Part shown: piece after piece, positions 882 to 34,086 of the stretch
How the letters are laid out: each line of letters begins with the position of its first letter
Position numbering within the stretch: position 1 is the stretch's first letter
Assembly (NCBI GenBank): GCA_003345595.1
Contig: PRDI01000064.1
Coordinates: forward strand, 1-57,530
DNA: 57,530 nucleotides
Source: Candidatus Thorarchaeota archaeon
GTDB lineage: Archaea > Asgardarchaeota > Thorarchaeia > Thorarchaeales > Thorarchaeaceae
Reading direction: 5' to 3'
The notes under the pieces: model-generated
Told to the model about the DNA's origin: nothing
Databases searched by the model: none
What the model saw: only the letters and a program-made list of their open reading frames with translations
Program-made: the position numbers and the translations under genes

Positions 882-1201
882 ATGCAGTGTCTAGCCCTCC
901 CGGCGGCAGACGGTTTGACCTGTAAACGCATCCGTAATATAAACACAGTGTGAGTACACGCTGATGACCGGCTGCGGGCCAAACGTGGCAGTTCTGCCTC
1001 TTGGTTGACACACATGTTTGGCGCGGAACATTCTAACGTGTACTGCACGACTAGCACGTTGAAGCGTGTACACCCGCAGGATTCTGCCTCCTATGGCAGT
1101 CCTTCGCCAACGAGCTAACTTGCCTGCTTTCCCTCGAAAGTGACAAGAAGGCAATGGTTAAATGCGGCAGAACCGCTCGACCTCGAAGGCGGGAAATCAT
1201 C

Positions 1202-1693: not shown

Positions 1694-1835
1694 AACGCTC
1701 AGCCGATTAGTGCGTGTCATGATCAGCCCAGCAATGTTTCTTGTCAGCCTCTAGCTTAGGCACTCTGGTCAGAAAGGTGTTTGGCCTTCCCATATCTAGG
1801 TGCTTGCCTACGCCGACTTGGCAGCAGAGACCCAC

Positions 1836-4454
1836 TCATACATGTTTTCTGATCAGCTTGGACGCCTCTATCCAGAACGTAGCAGCGAATGAGGCGACTA
1901 CGACGAGCAACCAATCCGACACTTCCAGATAAGTTGTCTTCAACTGGATTTGTAGAAACGGCACAGCTGTGACCAACAACAGCATGATTATGGCTATCAA
2001 TCCCCACAGGGTCATGATCCTATTTGACAATAGTCCTTGTCTGACAAGTGGCTCTCTCTCGGACCTCGTGTTGAAGGCTAGAAAGACGTGAGTCAATACC
2101 CACGTAGCAAAAGCCGCTGTCTGTGCATATACGAGGTTTCCTGTTCTGTAGTAGGTCAGGAGGTAGCAGAGAGACACTGCCGCAAAGAGGCATAACGCAC
2201 CGACAAAGATCCCTGTTAGAGTATGTCTGTTCAGAACTTTCTCCTTCGGGTCTCTAGGCGGGCGCTTCATGATGTCCGGTTCCATGCCCTCTGCGACGAA
2301 CCCGCTTGAAGCGGCAAGGTCCATGAACATCTCCAAGAGGATGATCTGAATTGGAGCGAAAGGTAGTGGCACTGCAAGGAGAATTGGCAGTAAGAATATC
2401 AAGATGAGGGCAACCTTGACCGAGAGATAGTATCGGATGCCTTTCCTAAGATTGTCGAAAATCTTTCGACCCTCTCTGACTGCGCCTGCAATGGACACGA
2501 AGTTGTCGTCTGTCAATATCATATCAGCGGCTTCTTTGGCTGCATCGGTGCCCTTCACCCCCATGGCGATGCCGATTGCCGCCTCCTTCAGAGCAGGTGC
2601 ATCATTCACTCCATCCCCAGTGACGGCGACGACTTCTCCCGTCTGCCTGAGGAGCCTGACTATCCTCAACTTGTGTTCTGGTGTGATTCTGGCGAATACC
2701 GATACTGTCTTGAGCGCCTCTTTCAGATGATCGTCGTCGAGCGACGAAACCTGAGCTCCTGTGAGTGGTCCTTCGTCATCGGGTATGCCAACCTGAGTCG
2801 CTATCGCTTTCGCAGTTTCGGGGTGGTCGCCTGTCAGCATTATGACCCTTATTCCTGCTGCCCTGCATTCAGCAATGACGCCCGGTACTTCAGGTCTAGC
2901 AGGATCGCTGAAACTAACCATTCCAGCGAAGGTAAGATTCCTCACATACGCTTCACGTTCTTCATCCTTGTCAAGAGTGCGATATGCGACTGCAAGTATT
3001 CGTTCACCACCCGAAGCGATTTGAGTCGCGGCCTCGGTCACCTTGGCGAGCTCTGAGCTGGTGAAACTGACTTCTCTATCTCCCAGCAGAGTCTTCGATG
3101 ATCTTTCTAGGACAGCCTCAGGCGCTCCACTTGAGTAGATAGTTCTCTTGTCTTCCTTAGCATACACATACGAAGCCATCTTGGTCTTGTTGTCGAAGCT
3201 AAACTCGTCAACAAGGACGTATTCAGCCAAATCACTGACTGCAAGTCCAACGTCCTTGGCCGAGTTCGCTAGGGCCGCTCCCATTGGATTGGAGCCCTTC
3301 AACCTCTCATACTCCATGGTCATCTGAGCCCGCGTTGCGAGGACTGCCATCGTCACTAGTTTCTGTACAGCAGGGGATACTGAAGGCAGTGTCAACTCAT
3401 GATTGCTGAAGACATGCCCGAGTTTCATTGAACTCTCGGTCAGTGTTCCAGTCTTGTCTGTGGCAATCACTGTAACGCTTCCAAGGGTCTCTGACGCTCT
3501 AAGACGCTTAACAAGAGCATTCTTCTTTGAAAGGGCATATGTGCCGACGGCTAGGACCATTGTGATCACAATCGGCAGCTCTTCAGGGATCACAGCAAAG
3601 GAAAGCGACAGACCTGTCAAGATCATCGTCTGAAGTGGTTGTCCTCGCAAATAGCCAAGGACTGGAATCAGGACACTGAAGAATATCGCAATCCACACCA
3701 GAGTTTCGCTAAGCTGCTTCATTGCGTCCTGAAGAGGCGTTGGAGGCTCCTCGGCTTCCTCAGTCAACTCTTGGACTCTGCCGAGCTCGGTACTCTTTCC
3801 GGTGGAGGTAACGACAGCTACTCCTTCACCCTGAGCGATTAGAGTTCCAGCCAAGACCATGTTCGTGAGATCTGTCAACTGGGCACTAGCTGGCATGACT
3901 ACTTCGGCATCCTTCATGACAGGTAGAGACTCGCCAGTGAGTGATGATTCATCGAGCTGAAGACCATATGCTTTCAGCAACCTAGCATCGGCGGATATGC
4001 GCTCTCCGATGCTGAGTACAAGAATATCGCCAGGCACTATCTTCGCTGAGGATATCTCAATCAGCTCTCCACCGCGAATCACATTGGAAGTTGGAGATGA
4101 TAGTTCCTTTAGGGACTTTACTCCTTGGTCAGCCCTGTACTCGTTGTAGACCTCTACCAGAACGAGAACAATGATTATCGAGAATATGGTGGCAGCATCG
4201 AGAAGCGTCCCGAGCACACTGTACAGGACTCCCACAAAGATAAGGAGCAATATCATTGGCTCAGTCGCTTCTTCTTCTAGTTCTTCCAGGAAGCTTTCCT
4301 TTTCCTCCTCGATTAGTGAATTCTCCCCATACTTCTCAAGCCTAATCTCGGCTTCCTCAGAGGTTAGTCCTTTCCTTGGGTCAGTATCAAGCGCAGCAAG
4401 GACTTCCTCAGCATCTTGCGAAGCCCATGCAGTGGTTCTGTTCGCAGTGTCCAT
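1836..4454 (-). CDS. P-type cation-transporting ATPase (E1-E2 type II, probably Ca2+ or other cation)
   Basis: Phosphorylation motif DKTGTLT, hinge motifs MLTGDHPETA and TGDGVNDAPALK, a PEGL-like IPEELP in M4, and ten predicted TM helices. Length is 872 aa. Confidence 0.92.
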   Translation of the reverse strand: MDTANRTTAWASQDAEEVLAALDTDPRKGLTSEEAEIRLEKYGENSLIEEEKESFLEELEEEATEPMILLLIFVGVLYSVLGTLLDAATIFSIIIVLVLVEVYNEYRADQGVKSLKELSSPTSNVIRGGELIEISSAKIVPGDILVLSIGERISADARLLKAYGLQLDESSLTGESLPVMKDAEVVMPASAQLTDLTNMVLAGTLIAQGEGVAVVTSTGKSTELGRVQELTEEAEEPPTPLQDAMKQLSETLVWIAIFFSVLIPVLGYLRGQPLQTMILTGLSLSFAVIPEELPIVITMVLAVGTYALSKKNALVKRLRASETLGSVTVIATDKTGTLTESSMKLGHVFSNHELTLPSVSPAVQKLVTMAVLATRAQMTMEYERLKGSNPMGAALANSAKDVGLAVSDLAEYVLVDEFSFDNKTKMASYVYAKEDKRTIYSSGAPEAVLERSSKTLLGDREVSFTSSELAKVTEAATQIASGGERILAVAYRTLDKDEEREAYVRNLTFAGMVSFSDPARPEVPGVIAECRAAGIRVIMLTGDHPETAKAIATQVGIPDDEGPLTGAQVSSLDDDHLKEALKTVSVFARITPEHKLRIVRLLRQTGEVVAVTGDGVNDAPALKEAAIGIAMGVKGTDAAKEAADMILTDDNFVSIAGAVREGRKIFDNLRKGIRYYLSVKVALILIFLLPILLAVPLPFAPIQIILLEMFMDLAASSGFVAEGMEPDIMKRPPRDPKEKVLNRHTLTGIFVGALCLFAAVSLCYLLTYYRTGNLVYAQTAAFATWVLTHVFLAFNTRSEREPLVRQGLLSNRIMTLWGLIAIIMLLLVTAVPFLQIQLKTTYLEVSDWLLVVVASFAATFWIEASKLIRKHV

Positions 4455-4596
4455 CGGAAGATTCCCTCAACCTAATCGGTTCTGCCTGAAGGCACGTCAA
4501 TATTCCCGACTTCTTATCTTTTCTGCAGCGCCATGGATTCAAGCGAAGCGACCCAGTTCAAAACAGTCATATTGAGGAAACGCAATTGCCAGAGGT

Positions 4597-5796
4597 ATGA
4601 CTTCTGAGTCTGCTAAGGTCTACTTCGGATCGGTCAAGCAAGGGAACAGAGGCAAGTTTGCCTCCTTTGCCGCGAAAGTTGATGAAGTTGTCAAGAAGCT
4701 TGACCTGTCCACTATCGAGAAGAAGGACAAGGTTGCCATCAAGATGCATCTGGGGTATGAGGACGGCTACCAGACACTGCCTGTGTTCTTTGTGCGTCGA
4801 ATAGTCGAGGCAGTGAAGAAGACTGGAGCATTCCCCTTCATAACTGACAATCCCACATCAGTCTACAACGCCGTTAATCGAGGATACACGTCTGAAACCT
4901 GTGGGTGTCCTCTAATACCATTTGATGGAGTGAAGGACAAGTACCTCTACAAGACGCAGATTGATTTCAGAGGAGTAGACACTCTCGAAATGGGTGGTGT
5001 TCTACACGACTCTGATGTGCTGATAGATTTGGTTCATGCCAAAGGTCACAATACGTGTGGATATGGAGGAGCAATAAAGAACCTGGCCATCGGAGGGTTC
5101 TCGGCGCAGAGTCGATGGCAGAAATACCACAATATCTGGGACGCGATTCCCTACTGGGACTCCAAGAAGTGCACACCGGGTCATGCCAAGAAGCTCGTTG
5201 AATCATGTCCTGACCGTTGCATTAAGTACAAGGAAGTGGAGCACGAGCTGAAGCTCGAGTTTGATATGTGCAACCAATGTATGAAGTGCATTGAGGCGGA
5301 CAAAGGTGTAGGTTCTCTTCAGCTGAAACAGGAGAGCTTCTCTCTCTTTCAGGAAATGATGGCCATTGGCACAAGCAAGGTGTTGGAGAGGTTTCCGCCG
5401 AACAAGAGGTTCTTCATCAACTTCCTCATTGACATAACAGCTTACTGTGATTGTTGGGGAATAGGGCAACCCGCCGTCGTGAACGACATTGGTGTGCTCG
5501 GCAGCAAGGACATTGTTGCGATAGAAAAGGCCACGCTGGATCTCATTGCGAAAGAGGGTTTGATAGAATCGATGATACCTCTCTACTTCAGGCCGAACCT
5601 CGATCCTAAAACGAACCTGCATCCGTTCGCAAGGATTCACGGGCCGATGAAGGACCCTTACATCGTGGTCGACTACGCCCAGAAGCTAGGTCTGGGGACG
5701 AAGAACTACGAGCTGATTGAGGTGTTATCGCCCGTCTCGACGCTAACAATGAAAGCGCCAACGCATGTGTCTGAGATTGAGCCTACGTTCTTCTGA
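4597..5796 (+). CDS. DUF362 domain protein with an embedded 4Fe-4S ferredoxin-type cysteine cluster
   Basis: CPDRC...CNQCMKC cysteine pattern. The overall composition resembles DUF362 iron-sulfur proteins. The start is divergent from the ATPase gene across a 143-bp spacer. Confidence 0.65.
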   Translation: MTSESAKVYFGSVKQGNRGKFASFAAKVDEVVKKLDLSTIEKKDKVAIKMHLGYEDGYQTLPVFFVRRIVEAVKKTGAFPFITDNPTSVYNAVNRGYTSETCGCPLIPFDGVKDKYLYKTQIDFRGVDTLEMGGVLHDSDVLIDLVHAKGHNTCGYGGAIKNLAIGGFSAQSRWQKYHNIWDAIPYWDSKKCTPGHAKKLVESCPDRCIKYKEVEHELKLEFDMCNQCMKCIEADKGVGSLQLKQESFSLFQEMMAIGTSKVLERFPPNKRFFINFLIDITAYCDCWGIGQPAVVNDIGVLGSKDIVAIEKATLDLIAKEGLIESMIPLYFRPNLDPKTNLHPFARIHGPMKDPYIVVDYAQKLGLGTKNYELIEVLSPVSTLTMKAPTHVSEIEPTFF

Positions 5797-5946
5797 GCCT
5801 CTCGGGTCGCCCAAGAATACACTGGCCTCCGCTAAGGCATGGGGCTTCTTGCACAGCTTCAGAATAGGTGTGCACTCCGATGGCGATGGTTGCTGTGAAC
5901 CAATGTCTAATATGGTCTAGAGGGACAGTTCCTTTACCGATGGAAC

Positions 5947-7386: not shown

Positions 7387-8913
7387 ATGGTGGTCTTGGG
7401 CGTCCTGTTGTTGTTGTTGGCCAATGCTGCGCCCGCGTCTGCGGACGCAGACCGCTATACAGAGTATTTCGATACTACCATCTACGAAGATGCTGCGATG
7501 ACAAACGTCACAGGTTGGGGGTCTGGGGCTATTCGGTTACCTCGAGAGGGCCTGGCGACTATGGGCCGTTGCGACATGCCCGCCGATGGTTATGGAGTGG
7601 CAATAGCAGATAACATTGCATACGTGGCCGATACGTGGTCAGGGTTGCAGCTGGTCAATATCACTGATCCCGACCAACCCAGCCTATTGGGCGGCTGCGA
7701 CACACCAGGTCGGGCAACTGCCGTGACAGTGGCAGGTGGCATTGCGTACGTTACCGATGATGCTTTGGGGTTGCAGCTGATTGATGTCACGAATCCCCTT
7801 CAGCCGCTTATAGCTGGAGCCTGTCAGGTTCCCATTGTAAGTGATGTGGCGGTTTCTGGCCGCATTGCTTGGGTGGCCGCCCTGAATTCGGGTCTCTTGG
7901 CCATCGATGTTACCAATCCCGACCAGCCCGTCCTGCTGGGCATATACACCACTGGTAATCCTGTACGTGCGGTGGCGGTCTTTGATGGCATCGCCTACGT
8001 AACTGTGTTTGGTGAGGGGTTGACACTGATCAACACCACGAATCCTTTCCAGCCAGTGCTGCTGAGCAGCTGTAATACGCCCGGATCTGGAGAAAGGGTT
8101 GTGGTAGAAGCAGGCATCGCATACATTGCCGATGGATCTTCTGGCTTGCAGTTGATTGACGTTTCGAACCCCTTAGAGCCTAGTCGGGTCGGCAGTTACG
8201 ACACTGTCGGCGATGCGATAGCCGTGGCGGTAGTTGATCGTTTCGTCTACGTTGTCGACAATAACTTGGGATTAGTAATCATTGACGCAACAACTCCGAG
8301 TCGTCCATTGTTGCTTGGCGGTTACGATACGCCCGCAATGCCGATGGGGGTAGCCGTGGCCCAGGGCATTGCCTGCATCACTGATGGGTCGTCTTGTCTG
8401 ATTGTGCTAAAGCCGGAGTCCGACTTGGGCGAGGATTTCAAGCCTGTGGCAGTCGCTCAGTCGCTTAGGGTATTCGATAGTGGGACTGGCTTTATTGCGC
8501 GAGCCACTTTGTCATGTTTTCCGTCCTTGCCGACCGGAACTGCAATCGTCTTCGCTTTCTCAGTCGACGACGGTGCTCATTGGGAAACTGTCACACCTTA
8601 CGACGAGCACATGTTCACGTATGTGGGTTCCCGTCTGCGTTGGCGCGCCGTCCTAACCTCGAGTAATCCGCTACTAACCCCTGTCATGACTTCCTTGGCC
8701 ATCACAGTGACTGTCGCGGAATATGTAACCATTGACACAACTGTCCCGATAAGTACGACCTCGTTCACGGTTTCACCTTGGTGGGAAGGCCTCCCGTTGA
8801 GTCCTATCAGTCTGGTAGTGACATCTTGTGCAGTCGCTATCATTGTGATAGTGTCCTGCATGATAGTACGTGAGAGTCGCAGCCAAGAAATCGTGGGCTC
8901 CCTCTCGTCTTGA
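7387..8913 (+). CDS. LVIVD-repeat beta-propeller surface protein with a signal peptide and a C-terminal TM anchor. The ORF is open from 7204, but the start is probably at the signal-peptide Met at 7387.
   Basis: Seven or more repeats of the GLQLI(D/N)VTNP...G(I/V)AYV(A/T)D type match the LVIVD repeat. The N-terminus MVVLGVLLLLLANAAPASA is signal-like. The C-terminal hydrophobic stretch VVTSCAVAIIVIVSCMIV is followed by a charged tail. Confidence 0.8.
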   Translation: MVVLGVLLLLLANAAPASADADRYTEYFDTTIYEDAAMTNVTGWGSGAIRLPREGLATMGRCDMPADGYGVAIADNIAYVADTWSGLQLVNITDPDQPSLLGGCDTPGRATAVTVAGGIAYVTDDALGLQLIDVTNPLQPLIAGACQVPIVSDVAVSGRIAWVAALNSGLLAIDVTNPDQPVLLGIYTTGNPVRAVAVFDGIAYVTVFGEGLTLINTTNPFQPVLLSSCNTPGSGERVVVEAGIAYIADGSSGLQLIDVSNPLEPSRVGSYDTVGDAIAVAVVDRFVYVVDNNLGLVIIDATTPSRPLLLGGYDTPAMPMGVAVAQGIACITDGSSCLIVLKPESDLGEDFKPVAVAQSLRVFDSGTGFIARATLSCFPSLPTGTAIVFAFSVDDGAHWETVTPYDEHMFTYVGSRLRWRAVLTSSNPLLTPVMTSLAITVTVAEYVTIDTTVPISTTSFTVSPWWEGLPLSPISLVVTSCAVAIIVIVSCMIVRESRSQEIVGSLSS

Positions 8914-9379
8914 AACCTTTGTGAGGACCGCCGTTGGGTTCATCGGCTGCCATATGACATAGCCTACTGTGCGCGCTAGGGTCGAAGCAATCATGACCTT
9001 GATCTCGCCAATTGCCGGTCATATATCTCATGAGAAGGTCAATGGTATTCAAAAGAATGCGCTCATCGCTTTGGTGAAGGACAGCCAAAACAGTTTTCAC
9101 GCCAGTCCTGCAACAGTGGAGGCCGAAAGTGCAGTGCCAGTAGTCGTTTCTTGTTTGGTTCTCCCCCTCGCATGTTTCCGTCTGAGGGGGACGTCTGCCA
9201 TTCAGGCTGAGTCGGCCGAACCTGACCTCCTATGCGGACCGAGCTGGTTGGTACGACCCCGTCTTGGCTATGGTCTCCCATTGACTCAGCCGAAGAACGC
9301 TTAATACTACTCACTGCCATATACTCTTGGGACTTCGTCCATGTGAGTCGTCGCATGATTCTCGCATGGATCCAAGAGC

Positions 9380-9877
9380 GTGTCAGTTGTGACAAGTGAA
9401 TCTGAGTCATTTGCCTATCTCAACCCCGAAGAACGCCTGAAGAAATACAAGGAGTTCTTGGCTTCTCTGGAAAGGGAGGACGCGGCAGAACGACACAGAC
9501 ATGCTGGCCGTCCATCAGGACCTCAACCAAAGGTAGCGCCTGCCCGACAGGAATCCGCCCGGGCAGACTCACATGATGGGCGTGGAATACCCAGCCTGAA
9601 GCTCCGTGGCACAGTATCGGGCCGACAGAAGGAGTCAGAGGCAAAGGCCGGAGACGAGAGGAACCGTGTACTGTTGCGAGTCAAGCAGCGGGCTGTTGAG
9701 TCAGAAATAGACGAGGTCCGCAGAGAGAAGGCTCAGCTCGAGAGGAAGCTCGAAAGAGGGCATATTAAGCAGGAAGCGTATCAGCAGGAACTAGAGCAAC
9801 TCGTAAAGCGGGGTCAGGCCCTGCTTCGTAGAAGGCTCGATGTTGCCAAAGAGCTGAGCGAAGTTGTCGAGGACTAG
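9380..9877 (+). CDS. Hypothetical charged coiled-coil protein
   Basis: Rich in Glu, Arg and Lys with heptad-like segments (EIDEVRREKAQLERKLERG...). No enzymatic motif found. It overlaps the next gene by 14 nt. Confidence 0.4.
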   Translation: MSVVTSESESFAYLNPEERLKKYKEFLASLEREDAAERHRHAGRPSGPQPKVAPARQESARADSHDGRGIPSLKLRGTVSGRQKESEAKAGDERNRVLLRVKQRAVESEIDEVRREKAQLERKLERGHIKQEAYQQELEQLVKRGQALLRRRLDVAKELSEVVED

Positions 9878-10502
9878 ACGCAAGAGTGTCAGCGTGCTTG
9901 GCTTTGGAGACAGCTTGACTGCTGGAACACCAGGTTATGACCCCACAACTGGCTACGGAAATCAGCAGTCACAGTATGGATATTGGCTTGTCAGGAGGGC
10001 AAGAGAAGAGCGACAGCTGGCTCTAAGGTTCGACAATCAAGGTGTTCCAGGAGAACTTGCCCGACATATGCTGCAACGTTTGCACAGCATCTTAGACAGA
10101 ACTGACTATGCCGTCGTCATCATTCTCGGCGGCAGCAACGACTTGGGCTGGGGCGATGAACCGGACAGAGTATTCAGCTACCTGAGCGACCTCTGGCAGC
10201 GTGCGCTGGATACGGGTTCGGGTGTGATTGCGTGTACTATACCGCCTATCGGAATGCCCTATCCTCCGCTGCAGGAGGCCCAGATCCGACTCAACGAGAT
10301 GATAACTGAAGGATTGCGAGGGCGGGATTCTGAACTTGTCGTCGACCTCTTTGCAGCACTGTCCGACGAAAGAGGACTGCTGCGGCCAGAGTTCGACAGT
10401 GGTGATGGCCTCCACCTAAGTGAATATGGGTATAGACAGATGGGTGAGAGGATCTGGGCGGACGGTGCCAGGCGAATGTTAGACTCATCTCACGGTTTCT
10501 AG
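9864..10502 (+). CDS. SGNH/GDSL-family hydrolase (lipase/esterase-like)
   Basis: Block I GFGDSLTAG carries the catalytic Ser. Block III is GGSNDLGWG and block V DGLHLSEYGY carries the Asp-x-x-His. Confidence 0.8.
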   Translation: MSRTRRKSVSVLGFGDSLTAGTPGYDPTTGYGNQQSQYGYWLVRRAREERQLALRFDNQGVPGELARHMLQRLHSILDRTDYAVVIILGGSNDLGWGDEPDRVFSYLSDLWQRALDTGSGVIACTIPPIGMPYPPLQEAQIRLNEMITEGLRGRDSELVVDLFAALSDERGLLRPEFDSGDGLHLSEYGYRQMGERIWADGARRMLDSSHGF

Positions 10503-15758: not shown

Positions 15759-16454
15759 TCACTTCCTCTTCATGCAGACGACTGCACCAAGAATGACAAC
15801 AACACCGACTCCAATCCCGATGAGCAGTATGTTGTCTTGTATCATCACGACAAGGTCGTTCGGCAGACCCTCCTGGATGACACTGAAACTAAAGATCTGA
15901 GCTGAGCTGGTCGCATTTGTGACCGTTATGGTGTACTTGGCCAGGAACCCGGTAGACTTGAGGTAGAGCGCTCCAATGGTGGCTCTCTGACCGCTTGAGG
16001 TGGCTGTGAGAGACATCCCCCAGTAAGCTGAATTACTGGTGAATGCTGTTGAGGTATTCCAACCAACCGTGGTTTTGACGACTTCAGTCAGGAGCGTCCA
16101 ATTGCCTATTGGCACGACCATGCGTCCTCCGAACGCTGCAAGACCTATGAACAGGAGCGCATACAAACCAATAGAGGTCCCATTGGTCCACTTCATGTCC
16201 ACGGTAACAGTCGGCACCTGAGTCCAAACTGTGATGACATTGGGTATCGTGGGGGGAGCAGCTGTCACAATAATGTACATGCCCTCATGAAGGCTGAGAT
16301 CTTCCTCGGGATTCGTAGCATCCATTGTGAAGTTGGCCTGATAATCATCTGCAACTCCCCAGGAAAGATTCTGCGATGTCGCCGCAGCTACTGGAGAAAC
16401 AGCAAACATTAGCACGGTAGCCACGCTGACTACCAACACAAGCGTGCGTCTCAT
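15759..16454 (-). CDS. Secreted, membrane-anchored surface protein, paralogue B (231 aa from the signal-peptide Met). The ORF track extends it to 16532.
   Basis: Signal peptide MRRTLVLVVSVATVLMFAVSPVAAATSQ, the same length as paralogue A, and a shared C-terminus ...GLPNDLVVMIQDNILLIGIGVGVVVILGAVVCMKRK. Confidence 0.65.
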   Translation of the reverse strand: MRRTLVLVVSVATVLMFAVSPVAAATSQNLSWGVADDYQANFTMDATNPEEDLSLHEGMYIIVTAAPPTIPNVITVWTQVPTVTVDMKWTNGTSIGLYALLFIGLAAFGGRMVVPIGNWTLLTEVVKTTVGWNTSTAFTSNSAYWGMSLTATSSGQRATIGALYLKSTGFLAKYTITVTNATSSAQIFSFSVIQEGLPNDLVVMIQDNILLIGIGVGVVVILGAVVCMKRK

Positions 16455-16844
16455 ATTCTTCCTCTCTTTTTGTGCCACATAACTAGTGGTGGGCAAACGG
16501 TCGACGGAGTTGCAGAAAAGCTTTCGCCTCATTTCCTTCGCAGGACGGTGTTACAATCCACTCTTTGAGCAGACTCATCGCTCATGAGAACCTTCGGGTG
16601 TTAACATCGGCAGCTGGAAACGAAAGGAACGTCACTAGATACTTAGTAAGGCCAGCACCTCCCAATGTGCTTCATGTGGTTACTTCTCGACATGCAGGTT
16701 CGCGAGTCGCAGTCTCTTAATTGCCTGACAACATCTCTTCGTCGTCGAAACCGGCCTCAGGGTTCCACGACGGATGTGTTGTGTTCGCTCGGTGCCCAAT
16801 TCGTGCACGACTCAACAGGGTTTTGAGCTTGTTCGCTCCTCATT

Positions 16845-17795: not shown

Positions 17796-17947
17796 AGCCC
17801 GGAGGCCCGTTCTTGGCGAACGAAGGTATTGGGTCCTAGCCAGAGCGCGCTACAATCTGTGTTGCCTCTTCACCAACACCACGTACATAGCTGCAAATGC
17901 AACCATGGCCGGCACCATGACGATCAGCGGATCTGTTCCGATGGTGT

Positions 17948-18510
17948 CTACCAGGTATCTGATGGTTTCGTTCGAGCCCCAATTGCCATTCGCGTCCCGT
18001 GCAAAGACATCCCAATCAATGCCGTCCTTCTGCCAGCTGAAGGCGATCTCATAGAACCTCGGGTGCTGTTACCTTCTGTCATCTGTACAGACCGATTGTG
18101 CCACTCGCCCTCAGAATGAGGCCTGAAATGCAGGGTGACGAATTCGGCCCCGTCTTCGTCGCTCACCCAGAACGACATACTATAGGTCACGTTAGGAAGA
18201 AGTGACCAGTACGTAGGGAGGAACACCCGGCCCCGGGTGGAGATGGCAACTCTATCATCGGCCCGTCAGGCAATGTCGCAATCGCTTGACCTGAAAGAAA
18301 GGGCGGTTCATATGCGTGTGCACCCAGAATGATGATTGGCGCAATCACGGACACCCTCGCTTGGAACATGCTGACACCCACATTCCAGCCTCCTCGTACA
18401 TTGAATAGTTGGCACCTTGAGTGAGAAGAATCTTGCTGTTTTGCAGAAACACTGACCTCTTCGGCTCGGTCATCAGTGTCTTCGCATATCTGCCACTCTG
18501 AATAAGTCAC
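17948..18510 (-). pseudogene. Possible frameshifted or degenerate gene. Two overlapping minus-strand ORFs (18187..18510 and 17948..18226) sit in different frames.
   Basis: The two ORFs abut with a frame change at about 18190-18226. Neither has recognisable motifs. The region is otherwise a 700-bp coding void. Confidence 0.2.
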
Positions 18511-18860
18511 TCTATGCGTGAGCCGCGCTTGACAGAGTGTTTTCCTTTGGGCTTTTCTTTCTTCGTTGGTTTCTTCTGTTCCCCTTGACTTGGACTTGTC
18601 ATGTAGTCTGTCAGTGCCATTTGACCTGGCTCAGCGAGCCTCCACTTTGTACCGTCGGGCTCTCGCTCGATCACTCTCTCCCGTTTCATGTGCCGCATGT
18701 GATATCGAACCGTCGCGGCCGAAAGATTCACGTCGTCGGCAACATCGTTCACAGAGGCCCAATCTGCTCCATCGAGTCTTCGGATTATGCTGCTACGACT
18801 AATCAATCCCCGCCTTACACTTCTAACCCAGTGCAGACGTGCTCTTTGATCGATACTCAA
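18507..18860 (-). CDS. Winged helix-turn-helix DNA-binding protein with a lysine-rich C-terminal tail
   Basis: HTH-like segment LSAATVRYHMRHMKRERVIEREPDG followed by a wing (TKWRLAEPG) and a basic tail KKPTKKEKPKGKH. Confidence 0.5.
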   Translation of the reverse strand: MSIDQRARLHWVRSVRRGLISRSSIIRRLDGADWASVNDVADDVNLSAATVRYHMRHMKRERVIEREPDGTKWRLAEPGQMALTDYMTSPSQGEQKKPTKKEKPKGKHSVKRGSRIE

Positions 18861-18921
18861 GAGTCATCCTCACCATCTTCGCATCCCGGGCGGATTGATA
18901 GCATTCTTGTGGCACATACGC

Positions 18922-19275
18922 TCACTCATGTCCTTGGCCAATCAGCGACAGGAAGGCCGCCGGCTCAGTCCCCTCGGCAATAGGTCGTACTCGATAGTCA
19001 GGGTAGCTATGGCTTAGTCGGGCCGCAACCCGCGTTCCCATGAGCTTATTCATGAAATCCGCCTTCTTTCCCCTCCAAAGGTAGACGACCTTGTTCTCAT
19101 GGTCAATCAGCACAAGGACCTTGTCCGTTGCGGTGTGCTTGGCGTACTCCTCTGAGGGAATCATTCTCGCTTGGGCGTCGACCTCGAAAGCCTCGACCAT
19201 TCTGCTAGCTCCGGGAGCCTTCCTCACTTGTCCATAGGTACCGCCACCCTTATGATTCTTTTTTCTATGGCTCAC
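18922..19275 (-). CDS. Single-domain gelsolin/villin-fold protein (candidate Asgard-type actin regulator)
   Basis: The core DKVLVLIDHENKVVYLWRGKKADFMNKLMGTRVAARL resembles the gelsolin-domain signature (for example human G1 [31 protein letters not shown]). Its size of 117 aa is right for a one-domain gelsolin. Called by eye only. Confidence 0.45.
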   Translation of the reverse strand: MSHRKKNHKGGGTYGQVRKAPGASRMVEAFEVDAQARMIPSEEYAKHTATDKVLVLIDHENKVVYLWRGKKADFMNKLMGTRVAARLSHSYPDYRVRPIAEGTEPAAFLSLIGQGHE

Positions 19276-19362
19276 GCCCGCTGGTCATCCAGGGCCAATA
19301 ATGCGGGACAAAAGGGCCCACACGTCATACATTAGCATAAATGCAGTGATGCTGTTCGTGCT

Positions 19363-20109
19363 TTGATGGTGTGTGCCTTGTCAGACAGCAGCCGCAGTGC
19401 ATGGTTCGTAGACCGAGAAAGGAGGCGGGTAGAGCTCACCACAGATCAAGTTGTCACCTCTTTCCCACTGAACGCAATTCCCGACCCATTGTATGAGCCG
19501 ATGGCAAGCGCACTCGATGGCGATCTTGACCCTCAGACCAAGATTCAGAATCTGTATGAGTCATCACTCATGAAGCCTGCCGTTTGCACATTGAATGCCG
19601 GCGGACCGTTTCCGGTCAATACAGCCACGAAGATTGTCCGGTTGACTCTCACTGATGATGCGCTCAACGATAAGCTCGACGACATGGAAGGGCAGCTTCT
19701 GGCGCTACAAGGGCGTCCCTTCAAGGAAACCCTTGAGGATCGCATTGAGATCTATAGGGACCTATACAGAGATGACATGAAGATTGACAGACTGCGACTG
19801 GGTGCTGTTGAGATGTTTCGGGACGTGACATACGCGAACATCCAACGCGACCCGAGGGTTGCCCTGAGCTTCTGTTGGACCCGGCACAATCAGCAGCCGG
19901 CGGTTGGCTACCAGATCAACTGTGTTGCCGAGATATCACGCCCCGGTGAGCCCTTCTACAGGTTCATGCGATGTCTAAGGTCACTCTTCTCATTCAAGTT
20001 TCTTGAGATGCGCGGAACCGAGTATGCTTGTGCCTACAAGTTCTGGGTGTGCGAAGCCAAGGAGAAGTCGTTGACACCCAAGCCCGGCTTTGTTCCGCAT
20101 GAGCTCTAG
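19363..20109 (+). CDS. Hypothetical protein, possibly a split-barrel (PNPOx-like) fold
   Basis: A 248-aa ORF with protein-like composition. Its 3' end overlaps the convergent vWA gene by 4 nt. Confidence 0.45.
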   Translation: MMVCALSDSSRSAWFVDRERRRVELTTDQVVTSFPLNAIPDPLYEPMASALDGDLDPQTKIQNLYESSLMKPAVCTLNAGGPFPVNTATKIVRLTLTDDALNDKLDDMEGQLLALQGRPFKETLEDRIEIYRDLYRDDMKIDRLRLGAVEMFRDVTYANIQRDPRVALSFCWTRHNQQPAVGYQINCVAEISRPGEPFYRFMRCLRSLFSFKFLEMRGTEYACAYKFWVCEAKEKSLTPKPGFVPHEL

Positions 20110-22649
20110 TAGTTCGTAACTCTGAGCAAACTTTGAGGGAGTTCTTCTATTGAAGCAATGTTGAGTACTACCCCGTGTGCTGCCCTTGCCAAGGCGTCTG
20201 CTGAATCCGCATTGTGAGAAGTGGACGGCACGATTATTATAGTCCTGATCTCCTGCTGTCTGATCTGCCCTGCCAACTCCTCGCATGCGGCAAGATCGCT
20301 GAGATACATGTCTGTACTGAGTATGAGAATCTTCTCCTTTGCTCTTGTCTGCGTAAAGTCCTCAAGGGCAAGGCTCAGGGATTGCCTCGCGCCGGTGCCG
20401 CCTCCTGCTCTCACATCAAGAAGATCCCCGGCAACTTTCTCAACAGATACGCCGCGGTCCTGTATCCGTTTTACCACACAAGTTTCGCTATCAAACAGAA
20501 CAACCCCAAAGTCGTCTCTCTGTACTGCAAAAAGCCCGGCCATGACCGACACTGCCAGCATTCCGAGCTTCTCTGGAGCGTCCATCGAGCCAGACTTATC
20601 TAGAGCCCAGAAGAATGCACGGTGACCCATGTAGGTTTCAGTTGCTAAGAAGTCGTCCGGGTTCAGCATCTGAAAGTCTGTTCTACCCTGACTCAGAAGG
20701 GACTCAATTGTCTCTTCAAGGTCTATGAGGTCCACCTCATCTCCAATTCTGAACGGCCTTACAGTGGGAGTCTCCATGAGTCCTCCTAACATGGATGATC
20801 CCATTATTTCTCGTGAGAAGCGCATTCCGAGGTCCACGAGGAGTTTCTTGGCTATCCGCCTGAGCTGTTCCTTCACGTCGTCGGGAATCTCATCGCGGTA
20901 GGTGTACCAGATTCTTACGACGTCCGTGGCGGGTCCACCGAGGAGACCGGCCATGACTCTGTCGGTTCTTTCAGACTTGGGAGGAATGGCTCTATCTTTG
21001 TCGCCGTAGGCACCACCAGAGTTCCGCACTGCCCCATAGCTACCTCGTCGGTCGGACAACAACCCCAGGGCCGCTAGGAGATTAACGTGCGCCACCGCTC
21101 CCAAGGCCGCCTCGTTGCTCCTCTCGTAGGCAATATCACCTAGCTGCCTGAGTTGAGCCGTCGTCAGCCCTGCAGAGGCCATTAGTTCATGAAGTCTCTC
21201 AAAGCTCGACACCCCTTGCTGAATCAGCTTCTTGATGACTTCAAAGCTTGGGTTCAGTAGCTCGAGTATCTCCTCCTCCGTCATGTCTAGGCGTTCGCCC
21301 GCCTGCTTGATTGCCTCAATGGACGGCCGTTTTCCGACGTTCGCACACGATCTGACTGTCTGGCGCAGGTGTGCCCCGCTCTGTGCTTGGCAGGCTGCCG
21401 CATCCGCGAGATGCTGTTCCATATCATCCCACTTCTCAGCAGTGGACCTGTCAGGCATCTTCTGGCGATGGGACTCGGCCTCCTTAAGCTTCTGGACTAG
21501 GAATTCAGCAGGAGAGGATCGCGATTCTGCGCTCTCAATCGCGGCCTTGGTCAGCTTGTCAACTAGGTTCTTCCAGCTTAAGCTGTCCATCGCACACCCA
21601 GCAAGCTGCTTGATGTCAACATTCCCAGAGGCGCCGGCATCGTACTGCGAGTCATATTCCTGCAGTACTTCCTCAGTCACATCCTTCCCAGTGTGCTTCC
21701 GTATGCTGCCCGCAAACTCGAATGAATCATCAAGACGATATGTGGTAGCTGCCGTCTTGATCAGGTGCGAGAGGATATCAGGAGTTCTGCCCAATTCGCT
21801 TGAATAGGATGACGCTTGACTGAGATTACCGAGTGTCTCCTGAAGTACCTCGTCCATGGCCTTCCGCTTCGCCTTGCTCAGTGCCTGCAGCTGTTCAACG
21901 TGACGTAGTGCCCTTGCCGCGGTAGAAGGATCCCTAGTTGCCAGCTGTGTGAAGTCGGCCATGACGTCGCGGCTCTTGTTGAGTGCCTTTGCGGCTAGCT
22001 TCTCGGCGGCGTTCTGGGTCTTGCACAGGTTTCCTAAGACCTTGAGGACCGCAGAGTTGGCGATGTCTCTGCTTGTCAGGTTCCCTGCTCGGTCGAGGAG
22101 TTCTGCGGCCGCATTTGACCTCAGTTCCTCGTCGCTGGAAATCCCTCTCAACACAATGTCGCCATCAGATAGGTAGTCATGAGCTGCGTTATACAGTGAT
22201 GAGTCCTCTGCTGACCTGACTTGCTGAAGGTAGTCGTACCCGGCTTGCACGCGGTCCTTTCGGATTCTCTTTGCTAGATCTTGCTCCCAGCGAATTTGCT
22301 GTATTACAGCTTGAATCTTGTCAGCCCTCGCCGGGCTCTCCTGCAGCTCCGATTGTGGCTCTTCTTTTCTCTCTTCTCTTGTTCTGCCGAGGACCATGTC
22401 TTCTGCAATCAATCGCGCAAGTTCTTGGTCAGGGGGAAACGTTGTGCAAACGGCGGCATCAATGAAGTCATCGAGGGTCAAGCGACCCTGCCTGAGGTAT
22501 CGACTGGAGAGCAGCTGTGGTATTGCTTGAGTCTGGCGTATGCTGGGTTTCGTCTTCGTTTCAGGGGAGTTGCGCAACCTTTTGACGAACTCGTACGCAA
22601 ACTCGGGTACATTTGACAGGACAGGTTCAATGGTGGCAAGGGCTGTCAT
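20106..22649 (-). CDS. Large protein with a C-terminal von Willebrand factor A domain (CbbO/NorD-like partner of a MoxR-class ATPase)
   Basis: The C-terminal vWA has a MIDAS DxSxS motif (LDKSGSMD) plus downstream Thr and Asp positions (TGARQS, LSTDMY). About 600 aa of N-terminal sequence is alpha-helical and charged. The start overlaps the MoxR stop (ATGA). Confidence 0.85.
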   Translation of the reverse strand: MTALATIEPVLSNVPEFAYEFVKRLRNSPETKTKPSIRQTQAIPQLLSSRYLRQGRLTLDDFIDAAVCTTFPPDQELARLIAEDMVLGRTREERKEEPQSELQESPARADKIQAVIQQIRWEQDLAKRIRKDRVQAGYDYLQQVRSAEDSSLYNAAHDYLSDGDIVLRGISSDEELRSNAAAELLDRAGNLTSRDIANSAVLKVLGNLCKTQNAAEKLAAKALNKSRDVMADFTQLATRDPSTAARALRHVEQLQALSKAKRKAMDEVLQETLGNLSQASSYSSELGRTPDILSHLIKTAATTYRLDDSFEFAGSIRKHTGKDVTEEVLQEYDSQYDAGASGNVDIKQLAGCAMDSLSWKNLVDKLTKAAIESAESRSSPAEFLVQKLKEAESHRQKMPDRSTAEKWDDMEQHLADAAACQAQSGAHLRQTVRSCANVGKRPSIEAIKQAGERLDMTEEEILELLNPSFEVIKKLIQQGVSSFERLHELMASAGLTTAQLRQLGDIAYERSNEAALGAVAHVNLLAALGLLSDRRGSYGAVRNSGGAYGDKDRAIPPKSERTDRVMAGLLGGPATDVVRIWYTYRDEIPDDVKEQLRRIAKKLLVDLGMRFSREIMGSSMLGGLMETPTVRPFRIGDEVDLIDLEETIESLLSQGRTDFQMLNPDDFLATETYMGHRAFFWALDKSGSMDAPEKLGMLAVSVMAGLFAVQRDDFGVVLFDSETCVVKRIQDRGVSVEKVAGDLLDVRAGGGTGARQSLSLALEDFTQTRAKEKILILSTDMYLSDLAACEELAGQIRQQEIRTIIIVPSTSHNADSADALARAAHGVVLNIASIEELPQSLLRVTNY

Positions 22650-23572
22650 TAAGACTCAGCACCCTTCTTGCCCAAGACTGTGCGAACGAGCGCACTAACA
22701 GCTGGCTCGGCATCTATTCCCGGACGGAATCTGAGAGCACCTATCAATACGCTGGTCGCCGAATCAGAGAGTATCTTGTGCGTGACCTCGCCATTGTTAT
22801 CTCTTGTTGCCATTTGGGCTGAGAGTCGCGCAATCGAGATTCCGGCACGAATCGACGCAGGCAATTCTATGTCCGGACTGACTCTTGAAGCCGAAACTAG
22901 ACTGTAGACGCTATCAAGAACTGAGTCACTCAGCTTGTACTCGGGGCAGTTTACGCGTATTATCTCCAGTTCAGTTTCCTTGTTGGGGTATCCGAGTCTG
23001 ATCCAGACCCTAATCCTGTCTCTAAAGGCTTCACTCAGCCTGTGAGCCCCGGCCATTTCTTCCGGGTTCATCGTGAGAACCGGAAAGAAGCCGTCATGCG
23101 CCTTGATTCTACCGAGTCGTTGAACGTTGACGGTGAATTCCTCGAACGGCTCCAAGAGAGTGTTTTGAACATACTCGGGCAGACGGTTCCCCTCATTGAG
23201 ACCGAACACTCCTCCAAACACCATCGCCTTCAGCAGCGGTCCGGGCTCGAAGGAATCGAGGGTAAACCCCTTCGTCAGAACAAGCGCAGGGTTGAACGAG
23301 CCTATCAAGTGTGCCGGTCTTACTCCTTCATCTCCAGTGACCCATTGAAATAGCCTGTTTGTCTTCTCAGCGTAGGCCCGCAACAGGAGAGTCTTGCCCA
23401 CACCTGGCGGACCGATTATCCCCGGTATCAGATTCGCGTTCTCGCAATCAGTGAGTATGTCCCACGCATCTTTGTATTGGTCCTTCACAACAATACGTAC
23501 CTTTTCGCGCGATGCTGCCGCTAGGCGTTTCTGGAAGGCTTCACCAAATCCTTTTTCCTCATTCTCTGGCAT
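22649..23572 (-). CDS. MoxR-class AAA+ ATPase (AAA_5, CbbQ/NorQ/NirQ-like)
   Basis: Walker A GPPGVGKT, Walker B hhhhNEGNR-type, and an arginine finger. Length is about 307 aa. Translationally coupled to the downstream vWA gene. Confidence 0.88.
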   Translation of the reverse strand: MPENEEKGFGEAFQKRLAAASREKVRIVVKDQYKDAWDILTDCENANLIPGIIGPPGVGKTLLLRAYAEKTNRLFQWVTGDEGVRPAHLIGSFNPALVLTKGFTLDSFEPGPLLKAMVFGGVFGLNEGNRLPEYVQNTLLEPFEEFTVNVQRLGRIKAHDGFFPVLTMNPEEMAGAHRLSEAFRDRIRVWIRLGYPNKETELEIIRVNCPEYKLSDSVLDSVYSLVSASRVSPDIELPASIRAGISIARLSAQMATRDNNGEVTHKILSDSATSVLIGALRFRPGIDAEPAVSALVRTVLGKKGAES

Positions 23573-26607: not shown

Positions 26608-27444
26608 TTGATGATGTCCTCGGAAACGATCATGTGTCCCGTCTGCGGCGGAGCAATCCAAACAGTCTCTCCTGACAAGGTGAACAGATGCGAATTCTGT
26701 GCGAGCCCGGTCTTGGGCAGGAGGCAGAATCATGACTGTGTCAATCACCCCGGTCGTGTGGCAAAAGGCGTATGCAGCGTATGTGGAGACCTCGTCTGCG
26801 AAGAGTGTATCCAGTTACGGGTAGGGGACTATGGCGGCAAGCTATTCACAATTGCAAACTGTGGGAAACCTGATTGCGTTCAGGAGAGCAAGTGGGCACA
26901 GCCTCTCAATCTTGAGTATCAGCGTTTGGCTAACATGGATTGGTCTGACTCGGTCGACAACTCTATTCTTCGTGTCACGGGACTAGGAGCAGTCCTGATG
27001 GTGGTCTTCGAGCTCGTTTTTGTGCTGTGTATGCTCTATGTCCAGTACTTCACATCGTGGGGGCTGACCACAGACCCTGTTCCCAACATACCATACTTCT
27101 TCGTAAGAGGCGACACGGTAGTTCTGTTCTGCATCATCGGCAATCTTTTGTCGGCTCTGCTGCTCCAGACTGCCCTTCAGGTCCATGTGCACGAAAGGCA
27201 GCTTGGCGCAGGCATACTCCTTATGTTGCTCTTGGTCACAGAGGTGGGCTTTCTGCTTGGCAGGGGTCTTCTCTTCAATCTCCGCTTCTATCCCAGTCTG
27301 TATCTGATCCCCTTCTTCCTAGGAGCATTTGTGATTGCCACACTCATGGTCTTTGGTGGGGCACTACTAGCGATAGGAGTCGGATTCAAGAAACGAAAAC
27401 AGCTGAAGCGGGCTAGAGAAACCTTGGGCCTGTCAGGGCAATAG
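26608..27444 (+). CDS. Zinc-ribbon/B-box-like membrane protein, paralogue 2, with the domain order permuted relative to paralogue 1
   Basis: N-terminal CPVCGG...CEFC ribbon and CVNHPGRVAKGVCSVCGDLVCEEC...CGKPDC, followed by five TM helices. It starts 4 nt after paralogue 1 ends. Confidence 0.6.
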   Translation: MMMSSETIMCPVCGGAIQTVSPDKVNRCEFCASPVLGRRQNHDCVNHPGRVAKGVCSVCGDLVCEECIQLRVGDYGGKLFTIANCGKPDCVQESKWAQPLNLEYQRLANMDWSDSVDNSILRVTGLGAVLMVVFELVFVLCMLYVQYFTSWGLTTDPVPNIPYFFVRGDTVVLFCIIGNLLSALLLQTALQVHVHERQLGAGILLMLLLVTEVGFLLGRGLLFNLRFYPSLYLIPFFLGAFVIATLMVFGGALLAIGVGFKKRKQLKRARETLGLSGQ

Positions 27445-32556: not shown

Positions 32557-34086
32557 TCATTCTGAGGACTTGGGCTCAGTTAGAGAGGCATTTACTGTGA
32601 GTGTGTCCAGTCTATCCACAAGGACAAAATCGAAGAGACTCCGAGTAACCCTTGACTTCGCGCCGCTGCCACCTATTCCTCTTCTTTCCCGAGTCTTCAG
32701 TCTGAAACCTGCATCAGCAAGCGCATGCGCCACTCTGTCGAGGTCGGCGACAGGTATCCTGCTCCTCCCTTCGCCCAGAGCAGACAACACAGAATGCCCA
32801 TATGACGTAAGCTTGAGGTCGCTGATGTCTGCCTGGCCTCTGTCGAGTGGAATAACCACTGATTCCATTTCTTCCTGACGGAGATGTATGATTCGGTCAG
32901 CCAACTCTGGCTCGCCGAGGGCCAGCAGAGCCTGCACATCTATGAACAGGGTAGGTCCCATTCTCTTCACCTGAGACCGAATCATCCCAATCGCGCGTTG
33001 AAGGAGAGATTCTTTGAGTTTCGAGAAGTCTGAACCGCAGTCTTCCGCGGGAATCAAGAGAGTCGGGTCTCCATCGTATCCAGACAGATAACCCAGCCCA
33101 AAACCTTCAAGCAAGCCCTTCTGAGCGTGGAACCAATGCCCCGGCGCAACTCTCGACAGAATCGCATCCAGCCGTTTCCTCAGCTGTCCAGTCCCTGCCC
33201 GCTTCGCTTCTGACTCGTAGTCATAGGCGGTCAGCTTCGAATGGTGTACACATGTCATCCATCTCAGCACTGGAGGAATTATCGCCCGAGGAGCTGAAGT
33301 GATTGGATCTCGCATTTGCAGTGCTTTTGCTGCTGCGATGTACTTGAGTGCCGGGTCAACTCTCAGCTGTACGTCGCCCCTAAGCTCAACATGAGCCAGA
33401 GTATCCAGCCAGAACAGAGGAGAGACATCGAGCGTTTCAGTTTTCGCCCGGTTGTCACTTTCATGACCAACCCGAGGGAAACATGAATCAGTCTGATCCT
33501 TTTCGCGTTGCATCCTCCCAACAATGATTCTTGACAACTGCTTGCAGTCTTGCAAGGGGTACAGGTTCAGGTTGTCTATCGGGTTACCACTGAAGTCAAG
33601 TTGGCGGACTCTTGAGCACTGTGTCAAGGGAGTGACATCGAGGGTCGTGATACCATTGTCCGACAGGTCGAGTTCTTCCAGTGATGCACAGTGACTGAGA
33701 GGCCTGAGGTCGATTGAATCCAGCCTGTTCCCTCGAAGCGAGAGTGACTGTAGTCGTGGGCAGTGTCTGAGCGGCTCTAGGTCAACGGTATTTAGACAGT
33801 TGCCGTACAGCCAAAGTAGCTCCAGATCTTGGCATCCTGCAAGTGGGCTGAGGTCCACGCGGGCAATACCTACACCACCCAGGTATATCCTGTCAGTTGG
33901 CACTTGGACTGAACTCACTTCGTTGTTGCCATGCAGTGTAGCAAGCGTAACCGTGTCCAATGGGGAAACCTCAGGCGCAGACTTCGTGGATATATCCCGT
34001 CGGGGAAAGCAGTGCGGCCAACCCGAAGAACGTACAACCAACGCGACTCGATGGCCACGACGGCAGGTGAAACCTGCTACTCTCAT
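32557..34086 (-). CDS. Leucine-rich repeat (LRR) protein with an about 300-aa C-terminal domain of unknown function
   Basis: Eight or more consecutive 22-23-aa repeats of LxxLxxCxxLxxLxLxxNxIxxIDLxP type (LEPLRHCPRLQSLSLRGNRLDSIDLRPLSHCASLEELDLSDNGITTLDVTPL...). Confidence 0.8.
   Translation of the reverse strand: MRVAGFTCRRGHRVALVVRSSGWPHCFPRRDISTKSAPEVSPLDTVTLATLHGNNEVSSVQVPTDRIYLGGVGIARVDLSPLAGCQDLELLWLYGNCLNTVDLEPLRHCPRLQSLSLRGNRLDSIDLRPLSHCASLEELDLSDNGITTLDVTPLTQCSRVRQLDFSGNPIDNLNLYPLQDCKQLSRIIVGRMQREKDQTDSCFPRVGHESDNRAKTETLDVSPLFWLDTLAHVELRGDVQLRVDPALKYIAAAKALQMRDPITSAPRAIIPPVLRWMTCVHHSKLTAYDYESEAKRAGTGQLRKRLDAILSRVAPGHWFHAQKGLLEGFGLGYLSGYDGDPTLLIPAEDCGSDFSKLKESLLQRAIGMIRSQVKRMGPTLFIDVQALLALGEPELADRIIHLRQEEMESVVIPLDRGQADISDLKLTSYGHSVLSALGEGRSRIPVADLDRVAHALADAGFRLKTRERRGIGGSGAKSRVTRSLFDFVLVDRLDTLTVNASLTEPKSSE

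Follow-up and report, generated by a model that had tools for sequence, protein, structure and literature searches.

Does this stretch of Thorarchaeota DNA carry the gene of a eukaryote-like actin regulator, and how does that gene relate to the regulatory gene that stands next to it? The window, by which we mean the whole stretch of 57,530 nt (positions 1 to 57,530 of contig PRDI01000064.1, assembly GCA_003345595.1, on which all coordinates below are numbered), had been read from its sequence alone as encoding, on the minus strand of 18507..19275, a 117-aa gelsolin-domain protein beside a winged helix-turn-helix (wHTH) regulator. Two open reading frames (ORFs), each 117 aa as a maximal ORF, do lie on the minus strand of that interval. 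From sequence comparison and structure prediction, we propose that the first of them very probably encodes a 92-aa Thorarchaeota ortholog of ProGel, a gelsolin-domain protein of Asgard archaea, with its own promoter-like element and Shine-Dalgarno site, and that it is co-inherited with the second, a clade-specific wHTH gene 61 nt downstream.

Identity and extent of the gelsolin-domain gene

The maximal ORF of the gelsolin-like gene (18922..19275, minus strand, GTG start, 117 aa) contains a gelsolin-like core, VLVLIDHENKVVYLWRGKKA, and the stretch VLVLIDHENKVVYLWRGKKADFMNKLMGTRVAARLSHSYPDYRVRPIAEGTEPAAFLSLIG is the one that answers to the core pattern proposed in the sequence-only reading. The pattern is present, with the correction that it was written one residue short, since two residues (Y-L) stand between 'VV' and the tryptophan. 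In a phmmer search against all PDB chains the best match is 7c2f_B (E=3.4e-33, 117.6 bits, over ORF residues 26-113), to which the window protein is identical at 54 of 88 residues (61%). Next come horse and human gelsolin, with E values of 4e-9 to 5e-8 (about 1e-8 to 1e-9 for vertebrate gelsolins), and then the Asgard 2DGels at about 0.002-0.07. The 7C2F structure is that of a Thorarchaeota ProGel in complex with rabbit actin (PMC7444086) and was solved by Akıl et al. (2020, PNAS; PMC7444086), who also defined the ProGel, 1DGelX and 2DGel forms. The Pfam Gelsolin family (PF00626) matches ORF residues 56-109 with E=3.2e-4 and 20.9 bits, missing the gathering cut-off of 21 by 0.1 bit, and the Pfam scan found no domain besides gelsolin in the ORF. 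A precomputed PF00626 match is likewise attached to only some of the homologues, most of which are named 'hypothetical protein'.

The predicted structure points the same way. An AlphaFold2 model of the 92-aa form (see below), made with an alignment of 45 homologues, has a predicted local distance difference test score (pLDDT) of 90.8 and a predicted template-modelling score (pTM) of 0.81, and consists of one domain over residues 2-86. Its elements (strands 2-7, 13-15, 28-33, 38-43 and 70-75, helices 49-65 and 81-86) form a beta sheet with one long helix (49-65) and one short helix (81-86), which is the predicted gelsolin fold. The sequence-only reading had suggested a structural search as the check on its assignment, and the search, run here as a Foldseek comparison of the model with the PDB, again places 7c2f_B first (E=2.6e-13, template-modelling (TM) scores 0.88/0.92, root-mean-square deviation 1.6 Å, 88 columns). 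The other 49 of the top 50 hits are domains of gelsolin, adseverin, villin, CapG, severin or Asgard 2DGels, with no non-gelsolin fold seen, and the best profile and sequence matches also belong to the gelsolin family and not to an unrelated one. Membership of the ADF/cofilin family (PF00241) was considered and rejected, with no Pfam match at E<=1 and no cofilin in the top 50 Foldseek PDB hits. By sequence and by predicted fold, then, the product of 18922..19200 is a stand-alone gelsolin-domain protein of Asgard type and an ortholog of ProGel, as the claim of a stand-alone Asgard gelsolin had it.

Like the Thorarchaeota ProGel of 7C2F_B, the window protein consists of a lone gelsolin/cofilin domain of about 90 aa, starts with MVEAFE and has the LWRG and KLMGTRVAA.LSH helix motifs; the positions at which the two differ are for the most part among the first 27 residues and in the C-terminal tail. 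The Asgard 2DGels (Thor 2DGel/2DGel3, 7C2G/7C2H; those of Loki and Heimdall, 7WHG/7WHF) share the domain fold (query-normalised Foldseek TM 0.73-0.80, identity about 18-21%) and the Asgard origin, but are two-domain proteins with a WH2-like linker, and their severing and capping depend on calcium. The eukaryotic gelsolin, villin, adseverin and CapG domains (for example human gelsolin G2, 1KCQ, 5FAE) have the same fold (query-normalised TM 0.78-0.87), the W-x-G strand and the EG.EP..F C-terminal motif, whereas the proteins to which they belong are calcium-regulated and contain three to six tandem domains. ADF/cofilin, finally, is a single domain of related fold, and the pose of ProGel on actin is cofilin-like, but cofilin has extra helices that are absent from ProGel, and a WP where ProGel has the W-x-G of gelsolin (PMC7444086).

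The gene is shorter than its maximal ORF. Translation almost certainly begins at the ATG at 19200 (M26 of the maximal ORF), so that the sequence-only reading was right about the domain and wrong about the length: the coding sequence at 18922..19200 (minus strand) specifies 92 aa plus stop and a single gelsolin/cofilin-type domain (MVEAFEVD...LIGQGHE). We place the start there because of the starts of the homologues, in-frame stops in the closest relatives, and a GGAG and an upstream motif, M1 (described below), that are conserved. Specifically, the 90 homologues mostly have lengths of 89-99 aa and those that were read start with MVEAFE(I/V)D, and the crystallised 7C2F chain likewise begins with MVEAFE. 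The 25 codons that would make up an N-terminal extension (19201..19275, minus strand) have in-frame stop codons in the equivalent upstream stretch of L006 and L011, the two related loci whose ProGel is 93-95% identical to that of the window, and the translation of the stretch shows no conservation in L001, L012 and L014. A Shine-Dalgarno-like GGAG, read from the sequence, is located at 19209..19212 (minus strand), 8 nt upstream of the ATG, and 30 of the 33 related upstream regions have a tetramer of this kind between -7 and -20. As judged by these comparisons, the stretch 19201..19275 is conserved as DNA (M1 and GGAG) and not as protein, and it is most likely 5' leader and promoter rather than coding. 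Translation from the GTG at 19275 would give the full 117-aa product, a gelsolin domain with a basic, glycine-rich N-terminal tail that includes MSHRKKNHKGGGTYGQVRK. The frame is indeed open from 19275, and a few database homologues have N-terminal extensions of 101-138 aa, but these extensions have no sequence in common. The stops in L006 and L011, the keeping of M1 and GGAG as DNA, and MVEAFE as the start in both homologues and the crystallised protein all count against the longer product, which we regard as highly improbable and rejected on this start-site evidence. ORFs on the plus strand of the region (such as 18537..18983, 148 aa) were set aside as antisense shadows, all homology lying in the minus-strand frames. 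The GC content is even over the window (0.49-0.54), and there is therefore no sign of a foreign insert.

The ProGel family to which the gene belongs is narrow. A k-mer-seeded search gave 90 homologue clusters with 54-93% identity to the window ProGel, a range within which the crystallised ProGel falls, and those with a named source are 'hypothetical proteins' of Thorarchaeota together with one labelled Lokiarchaeota and one labelled Promethearchaeota. In an exhaustive profile search, which covered 1.84 billion representatives clustered at 50% identity, 216 proteins were found at E<=1e-3. Because the clade is seen there as two representatives at 145-153 bits, with a drop to 71 bits for the next, the window ProGel and the crystallised Thor ProGel form, by these sequence scores, one tight orthologous group. 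Among the remaining matches are further singles (90-146 aa), doubles (about 190-200 aa), proteins with a length of about 280-380 aa and multi-repeat proteins (700-3400 aa), and by length alone these are compatible with the ProGel, 2DGel, 1DGelX and eukaryotic architectures that have been described (PMC7444086). Within the clade, the 45-sequence alignment shows invariant or near-invariant residues in the region of strand 38-43 (L41-W42-R43-G44), at 11 of the 17 positions of the long helix (K52, L53, G55, T56, R57, V58, A59, A60, L62, S63 and H64), and at Y69-R70-x-R72-P73 and E79-P80. The 'DWG' motif, named as a gelsolin-type feature (PMC7444086), is present as D33...W42-R43-G44, with W42 and G44 invariant in the 45 homologues and D or V in the D33 column.

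The gene content around ProGel also places the contig. A genome scan yielded five loci, three from titled Thorarchaeota metagenome-assembled genomes (MAGs) and two from an 'uncultured archaeon'. The best of them, L001, is on a 916-kb contig of a Thorarchaeota MAG, has a ProGel 78% identical to that of the window, and is collinear with it through an AAA_5 gene, the gene of an 847-aa protein, a divergent PNPOx-like gene, ProGel, the wHTH gene and an Amidohydro_2 gene, after which membrane-protein paralogues follow. Protein identities across this block are 46-79%. Another locus, L010 (Joint Genome Institute metagenome contig Ga0153915_10000364, 41,290 bp), is 100% identical to the window over all seven proteins compared, so the two come from the same organism. 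Since the named relatives are Thorarchaeota, bar one Lokiarchaeota label, and the six genes are collinear with Thorarchaeota MAGs, the contig is by sequence Thorarchaeal, Thorarchaeota being a phylum within the Promethearchaeati (Asgard). The Asgard source that the sequence-only reading had deduced from the gelsolin gene is thereby borne out by relatives and gene order. The actin toolkit that it attached to this source is another matter: no actin, profilin, Arp or other cytoskeletal gene was found among the approximately 50 window ORFs scanned, and because the window has no actin, profilin or Arp2/3-like gene this wider claim rests on published work on Thorarchaeota and not on the window. A leucine-rich repeat (LRR) protein elsewhere in the window, which had been taken as a further pointer to Asgard, is real (32557..34086, LRR_8 match), but LRR repeats are not Asgard-specific and add little.

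The paired wHTH gene and two non-coding motifs

The gene that follows ProGel (18507..18860, minus strand, 117 aa, TTG start) encodes a predicted winged helix-turn-helix DNA-binding protein of ArsR type, with a long N-terminal helix and a disordered tail rich in Lys and Arg. The wHTH neighbour named in the sequence-only reading is thus substantiated by Pfam, where HTH_24 scores 23.2 bits (cut-off 21.9), HTH_20 24.6 bits and HTH_5 also matches, and by the AlphaFold2 model (pLDDT 79.2), in which a long N-terminal helix (5-30) is followed by a helix-turn-helix (helices 37-44 and 48-60), a two-stranded beta wing (64-66 and 72-75) and the disordered tail. The start at TTG 18860 is supported by the orthologs, which begin MSID.RARLHW, that of L001 having ATG at the equivalent position (MSIDPRARLHW). 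A Foldseek search with the model returned generic winged-helix proteins only (Zalpha, PapI, cullin WHB, CzrA, SmtB, MarR) and gave no specific family. The wHTH family diverges quickly, such that a search with the single sequence found only 2 relatives and a profile built from the locus orthologs was needed; this profile retrieves a small clade, source-named as ArsR family, with scores falling sharply below 86 bits. Where a source is named, the matches of at least 86 bits come from Thorarchaeota, with the one exception of a record bearing a Lokiarchaeota label, which mirrors the ProGel clade. The orthologs share the signature RAYL..IRNV.RGL..R..I ... T(V/I).YHL.NMERE..VER...G.GW(R/K)L...Q..L. 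Like the ArsR/SmtB regulators they have a helix-turn-helix with a wing, the HTH_24, HTH_20 and HTH_5 matches and an ArsR source name, and unlike them they form a clade of Thorarchaeota-named members (with the one Lokiarchaeota label) that has the long N-terminal helix RAYL..IRNV.RGL, the Lys/Arg-rich tail and a fixed position after ProGel.

This position is nearly constant. We gathered 45 loci, from which the window's own duplicate and one repeat were removed for the neighbour counts, the denominators being the loci with enough flanking sequence. In 37 of 38 loci the gene immediately downstream of ProGel, on the same strand, is a wHTH ortholog, and in 33 of 34 a PNPOx-like gene lies upstream in divergent orientation; the 847-aa gene adjoins the PNPOx-like gene in 27 of 32, and an Amidohydro_2 gene is found within about 70 nt of the wHTH match in 5 of 25. 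In the related loci the gap from the ProGel stop to the wHTH start is mostly 19-63 nt (range 3-238 nt). The ProGel-wHTH pair is kept in L025 and L026 despite a different upstream context, and in L008 and L009 despite gene insertions further downstream, and the junction between the wHTH and Amidohydro_2 genes is interrupted in most loci, with gaps of 0 to 2936 nt. The sole exception to the pairing is L036, where the wHTH gene has been lost and ProGel kept. In that locus a convergent gene for a 532-aa repeat-rich, membrane-anchored surface protein (4276..5874) follows ProGel in place of the wHTH gene. The ProGel-wHTH and PNPOx-ProGel junctions are therefore the most stable ones, and common descent explains part of the pairing, as all of the loci come from one narrow lineage. 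We did not find the pairing in the gelsolin literature that was searched (PMC7444086 and a 2022 paper), and other papers may note it. Specifically, the word 'operon' and gene-'neighbo…' wording are absent from Akıl et al. 2020 (PMC7444086) and from the 2022 paper, 'helix-turn-helix', 'genomic context' and 'synten…' are absent from Akıl et al. 2020 (PMC7444086), and a full-text literature search for Asgard, gelsolin and ArsR found nothing.

Two short non-coding motifs accompany the pair. M1, GAAAAAAGAATCATAAG (GAAA-N2-8-SATAAG), is located at 19249..19265 on the minus strand, 48 nt upstream of the ATG at 19200, and is matched once in the 57.5-kb window, both strands considered. Of the 45 loci, 26 have it shortly before the ProGel start, mostly 43-57 nt away, and there are 6 other matches in all loci together. 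Given a single occurrence in 57.5 kb and its rarity elsewhere in the loci, M1 is unlikely to be a generic promoter consensus, and the sequence would suit either a BRE/TATA-like promoter (BRE, B recognition element) or a specific operator. In 20 of 45 loci the ProGel stop is followed, at a distance of 1-22 nt, by M2, a CCAGAAAACACTTAG-like sequence, whose pattern, a regular expression defined post hoc, has no match elsewhere in 534 kb counted over both strands. The window has a degenerate copy, CCACAAGAATGCTATCAATCC, at 18892..18912 (minus strand), between ProGel and the wHTH gene, which, compared by eye, shares 13 of 19 positions with the CACCAGAAAACACTTAGTC form. M2 may serve as a promoter belonging to the wHTH gene, as an operator or as a signal for a 3' end. 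In each motif an A-rich tract precedes a hexamer that contains TA, and hence BRE/TATA-type promoters would be the simplest reading of the two, in which case each gene may have its own promoter; given their rarity elsewhere, they may also be specific operators. A scan of 18100..19500 with bacterial-type models gave no terminator and two promoter-like matches against 0.8 expected, such models being uninformative for an archaeon.

The wider neighbourhood and the rest of the window

The PNPOx-like gene upstream of ProGel (19363..20109, plus strand) encodes a 248-aa protein with a weak match to FMN-binding split-barrel proteins (PNPOx_N, 25.5 bits, under the cut-off of 28.1), and it is duplicated in tandem in L008. 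Beyond it, on the minus strand of 20106..23572, are the genes of a MoxR-like AAA_5 ATPase (307 aa, AAA_5 E=1.2e-14) and then of the 847-aa protein, a pair that is a frequent but not constant context of the ProGel locus. The 847-aa protein has no Pfam match, and a DKSGSM motif resembling a metal ion-dependent adhesion site is present near its C-terminus.

On the other side, a 107-aa ORF with a hydrophobic segment (18187..18510, minus strand) has a GTG start that overlaps the wHTH stop (GTGA). It was considered as a further member of the unit and rejected as poorly conserved even in the closest relative, being 50% identical over 50 aa in L006 where the flanking genes are 81-93% identical, and it is doubtful on this comparison that it is a gene. 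No Pfam match was found in the 710-nt stretch 17796..18506. Further downstream is the gene of a 257-aa membrane-anchored protein with no Pfam match (15759..16532, minus strand), of which L001 has three tandem paralogues (7758..10328), and copies are found downstream of the Amidohydro_2 gene in most related loci.

Elsewhere in the window, the gene of an EMC3/TMCO1-like membrane protein of the Oxa1 superfamily adjoins that of a P-type cation ATPase (Cation_ATPase_N, Cation_ATPase_C) at 1154..4454. A run of genes of signalling or scaffold type on the plus strand of 45151..52538 encodes an SPFH/Band 7 protein, a beta-propeller (WDR19-like match) with a zinc ribbon, a 963-aa dCache-TPR-VWA protein and a dCache-HAMP protein. 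At 26608..27444 (plus strand) a 278-aa protein has a weak match to the B-box zinc finger, which at 22.3 bits is under the cut-off of 24.1; elsewhere this domain is mostly eukaryotic.

Proposed function of ProGel and of its pairing with the wHTH gene

The biochemistry of ProGel is that of the crystallised ortholog alone. Its actin site overlaps those of gelsolin G1 and cofilin, with a cofilin-like pose that is shifted by one helical turn relative to G1, and the protein is without calcium sites; the assays were done in EGTA (PMC7444086). It interacts weakly with G-actin, binds to the sides of filaments, causes bundling and annealing at high concentration, and partly decorates actin filaments in human cells (PMC7444086). 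These actin assays used rabbit actin and needed 96-256 µM ProGel (PMC7444086). In the 2022 paper ProGel is named Asgard cofilin and is said to have been demonstrated as functional in Thorarchaeota only. By analogy with the crystallised ortholog, we propose that the window ProGel would bind actin in the same manner, that it would decorate the sides of filaments and promote their bundling or annealing, and that it would act without calcium control. Gelsolin G1 and cofilin bind actin through the long helix, and its conservation in the ProGel clade is the pattern that would be expected of a conserved actin-binding helix. As for calcium, when HMMER aligns the window ProGel with horse gelsolin G2, N51 stands opposite the Glu of 'RFERL', which we take to be a type-II calcium ligand. 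The column varies across the clade, and N51 would fit calcium independence at the single column looked at.

Several observations weigh against this reading of the gene as a ProGel ortholog that acts on actin. Its Pfam Gelsolin score is under the gathering threshold; 39% of its residues differ from those of the crystallised ProGel; at position 24 it has A, as opposed to D in about 90% of the clade (A24/D26 against a clade consensus of D24/N26); there is no actin gene in the window; and the published data, obtained with rabbit actin at such high concentrations, leave the native activity uncertain. The Pfam shortfall reflects where the threshold is set and does not speak against homology. The concentrations needed, taken with the interaction with G-actin described as weak and with the fact that cytoskeletal genes lie near ProGel in no locus, might instead indicate that the gelsolin fold serves a role other than actin binding, as does the gelsolin-like domain of Sec23/24, and that the effects on actin in vitro are a weak side activity. 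The most conserved surface of the protein is, however, the very helix that gelsolin and cofilin use for binding actin, and we consider a non-actin role to be distinctly unlikely. The reading that we favor remains that of a ProGel ortholog that would bind actin, and that is co-inherited with the wHTH gene, each of the two possibly having its own promoter.

The pairing itself could mean more than co-inheritance. ProGel and the wHTH protein may form a two-gene module, in which the wHTH protein controls ProGel and itself via M1 and M2, or ProGel modulates the wHTH protein according to the state of the actin pool. Consistent with such a module, the wHTH gene is on the same strand directly after ProGel in all but one of the 38 loci, usually 19-63 nt away, and the pair survives both a different upstream context and downstream insertions, while the next junction, to Amidohydro_2, is interrupted in most loci. 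Moreover, the strong matches of the wHTH clade share the named sources of the ProGel clade, and M1 and M2 are conserved though the ProGel proteins are only about 60% identical, neither motif being a generic promoter consensus (M1 once in 57.5 kb, M2 nowhere else in 534 kb). Against this, the loci belong to one narrow lineage with a longer collinear block, in which the PNPOx-like gene is nearly as constant (33 of 34), and shared ancestry could explain much of the pairing; in addition, L036 kept ProGel without the wHTH gene, the M2 pattern was drawn after looking at the data, and the wHTH fold is generic. On balance a functional module of either kind is a tentative idea that we think rather unlikely, and still less probable is the specific form in which the wHTH protein of Thorarchaeota acts on M1 and M2 and is perhaps modulated by ProGel or actin.

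What does the locus mean for the family? The window carries the 'prototype' gelsolin/cofilin that has been proposed as an ancestor-like form of eukaryotic cofilin and gelsolin, which is already published, and finding its gene is a matter of recognition and not of discovery, the family having been characterised since 2020. The gene is one more ortholog, and the one new lead is the near-constant pairing with the wHTH gene. The family falls just under the Pfam threshold and is called 'hypothetical protein' in nearly all source names, so that profile-based recognition is needed. The pairing and the two motifs would provide a modest lead on putative regulation and a testable handle on the expression of an Asgard actin regulator, a topic absent from the gelsolin literature that was searched. 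Were the module to be true, it would constitute an archaeal link from the state of the actin cytoskeleton to transcription, loosely like G-actin/MRTF signalling in eukaryotes.

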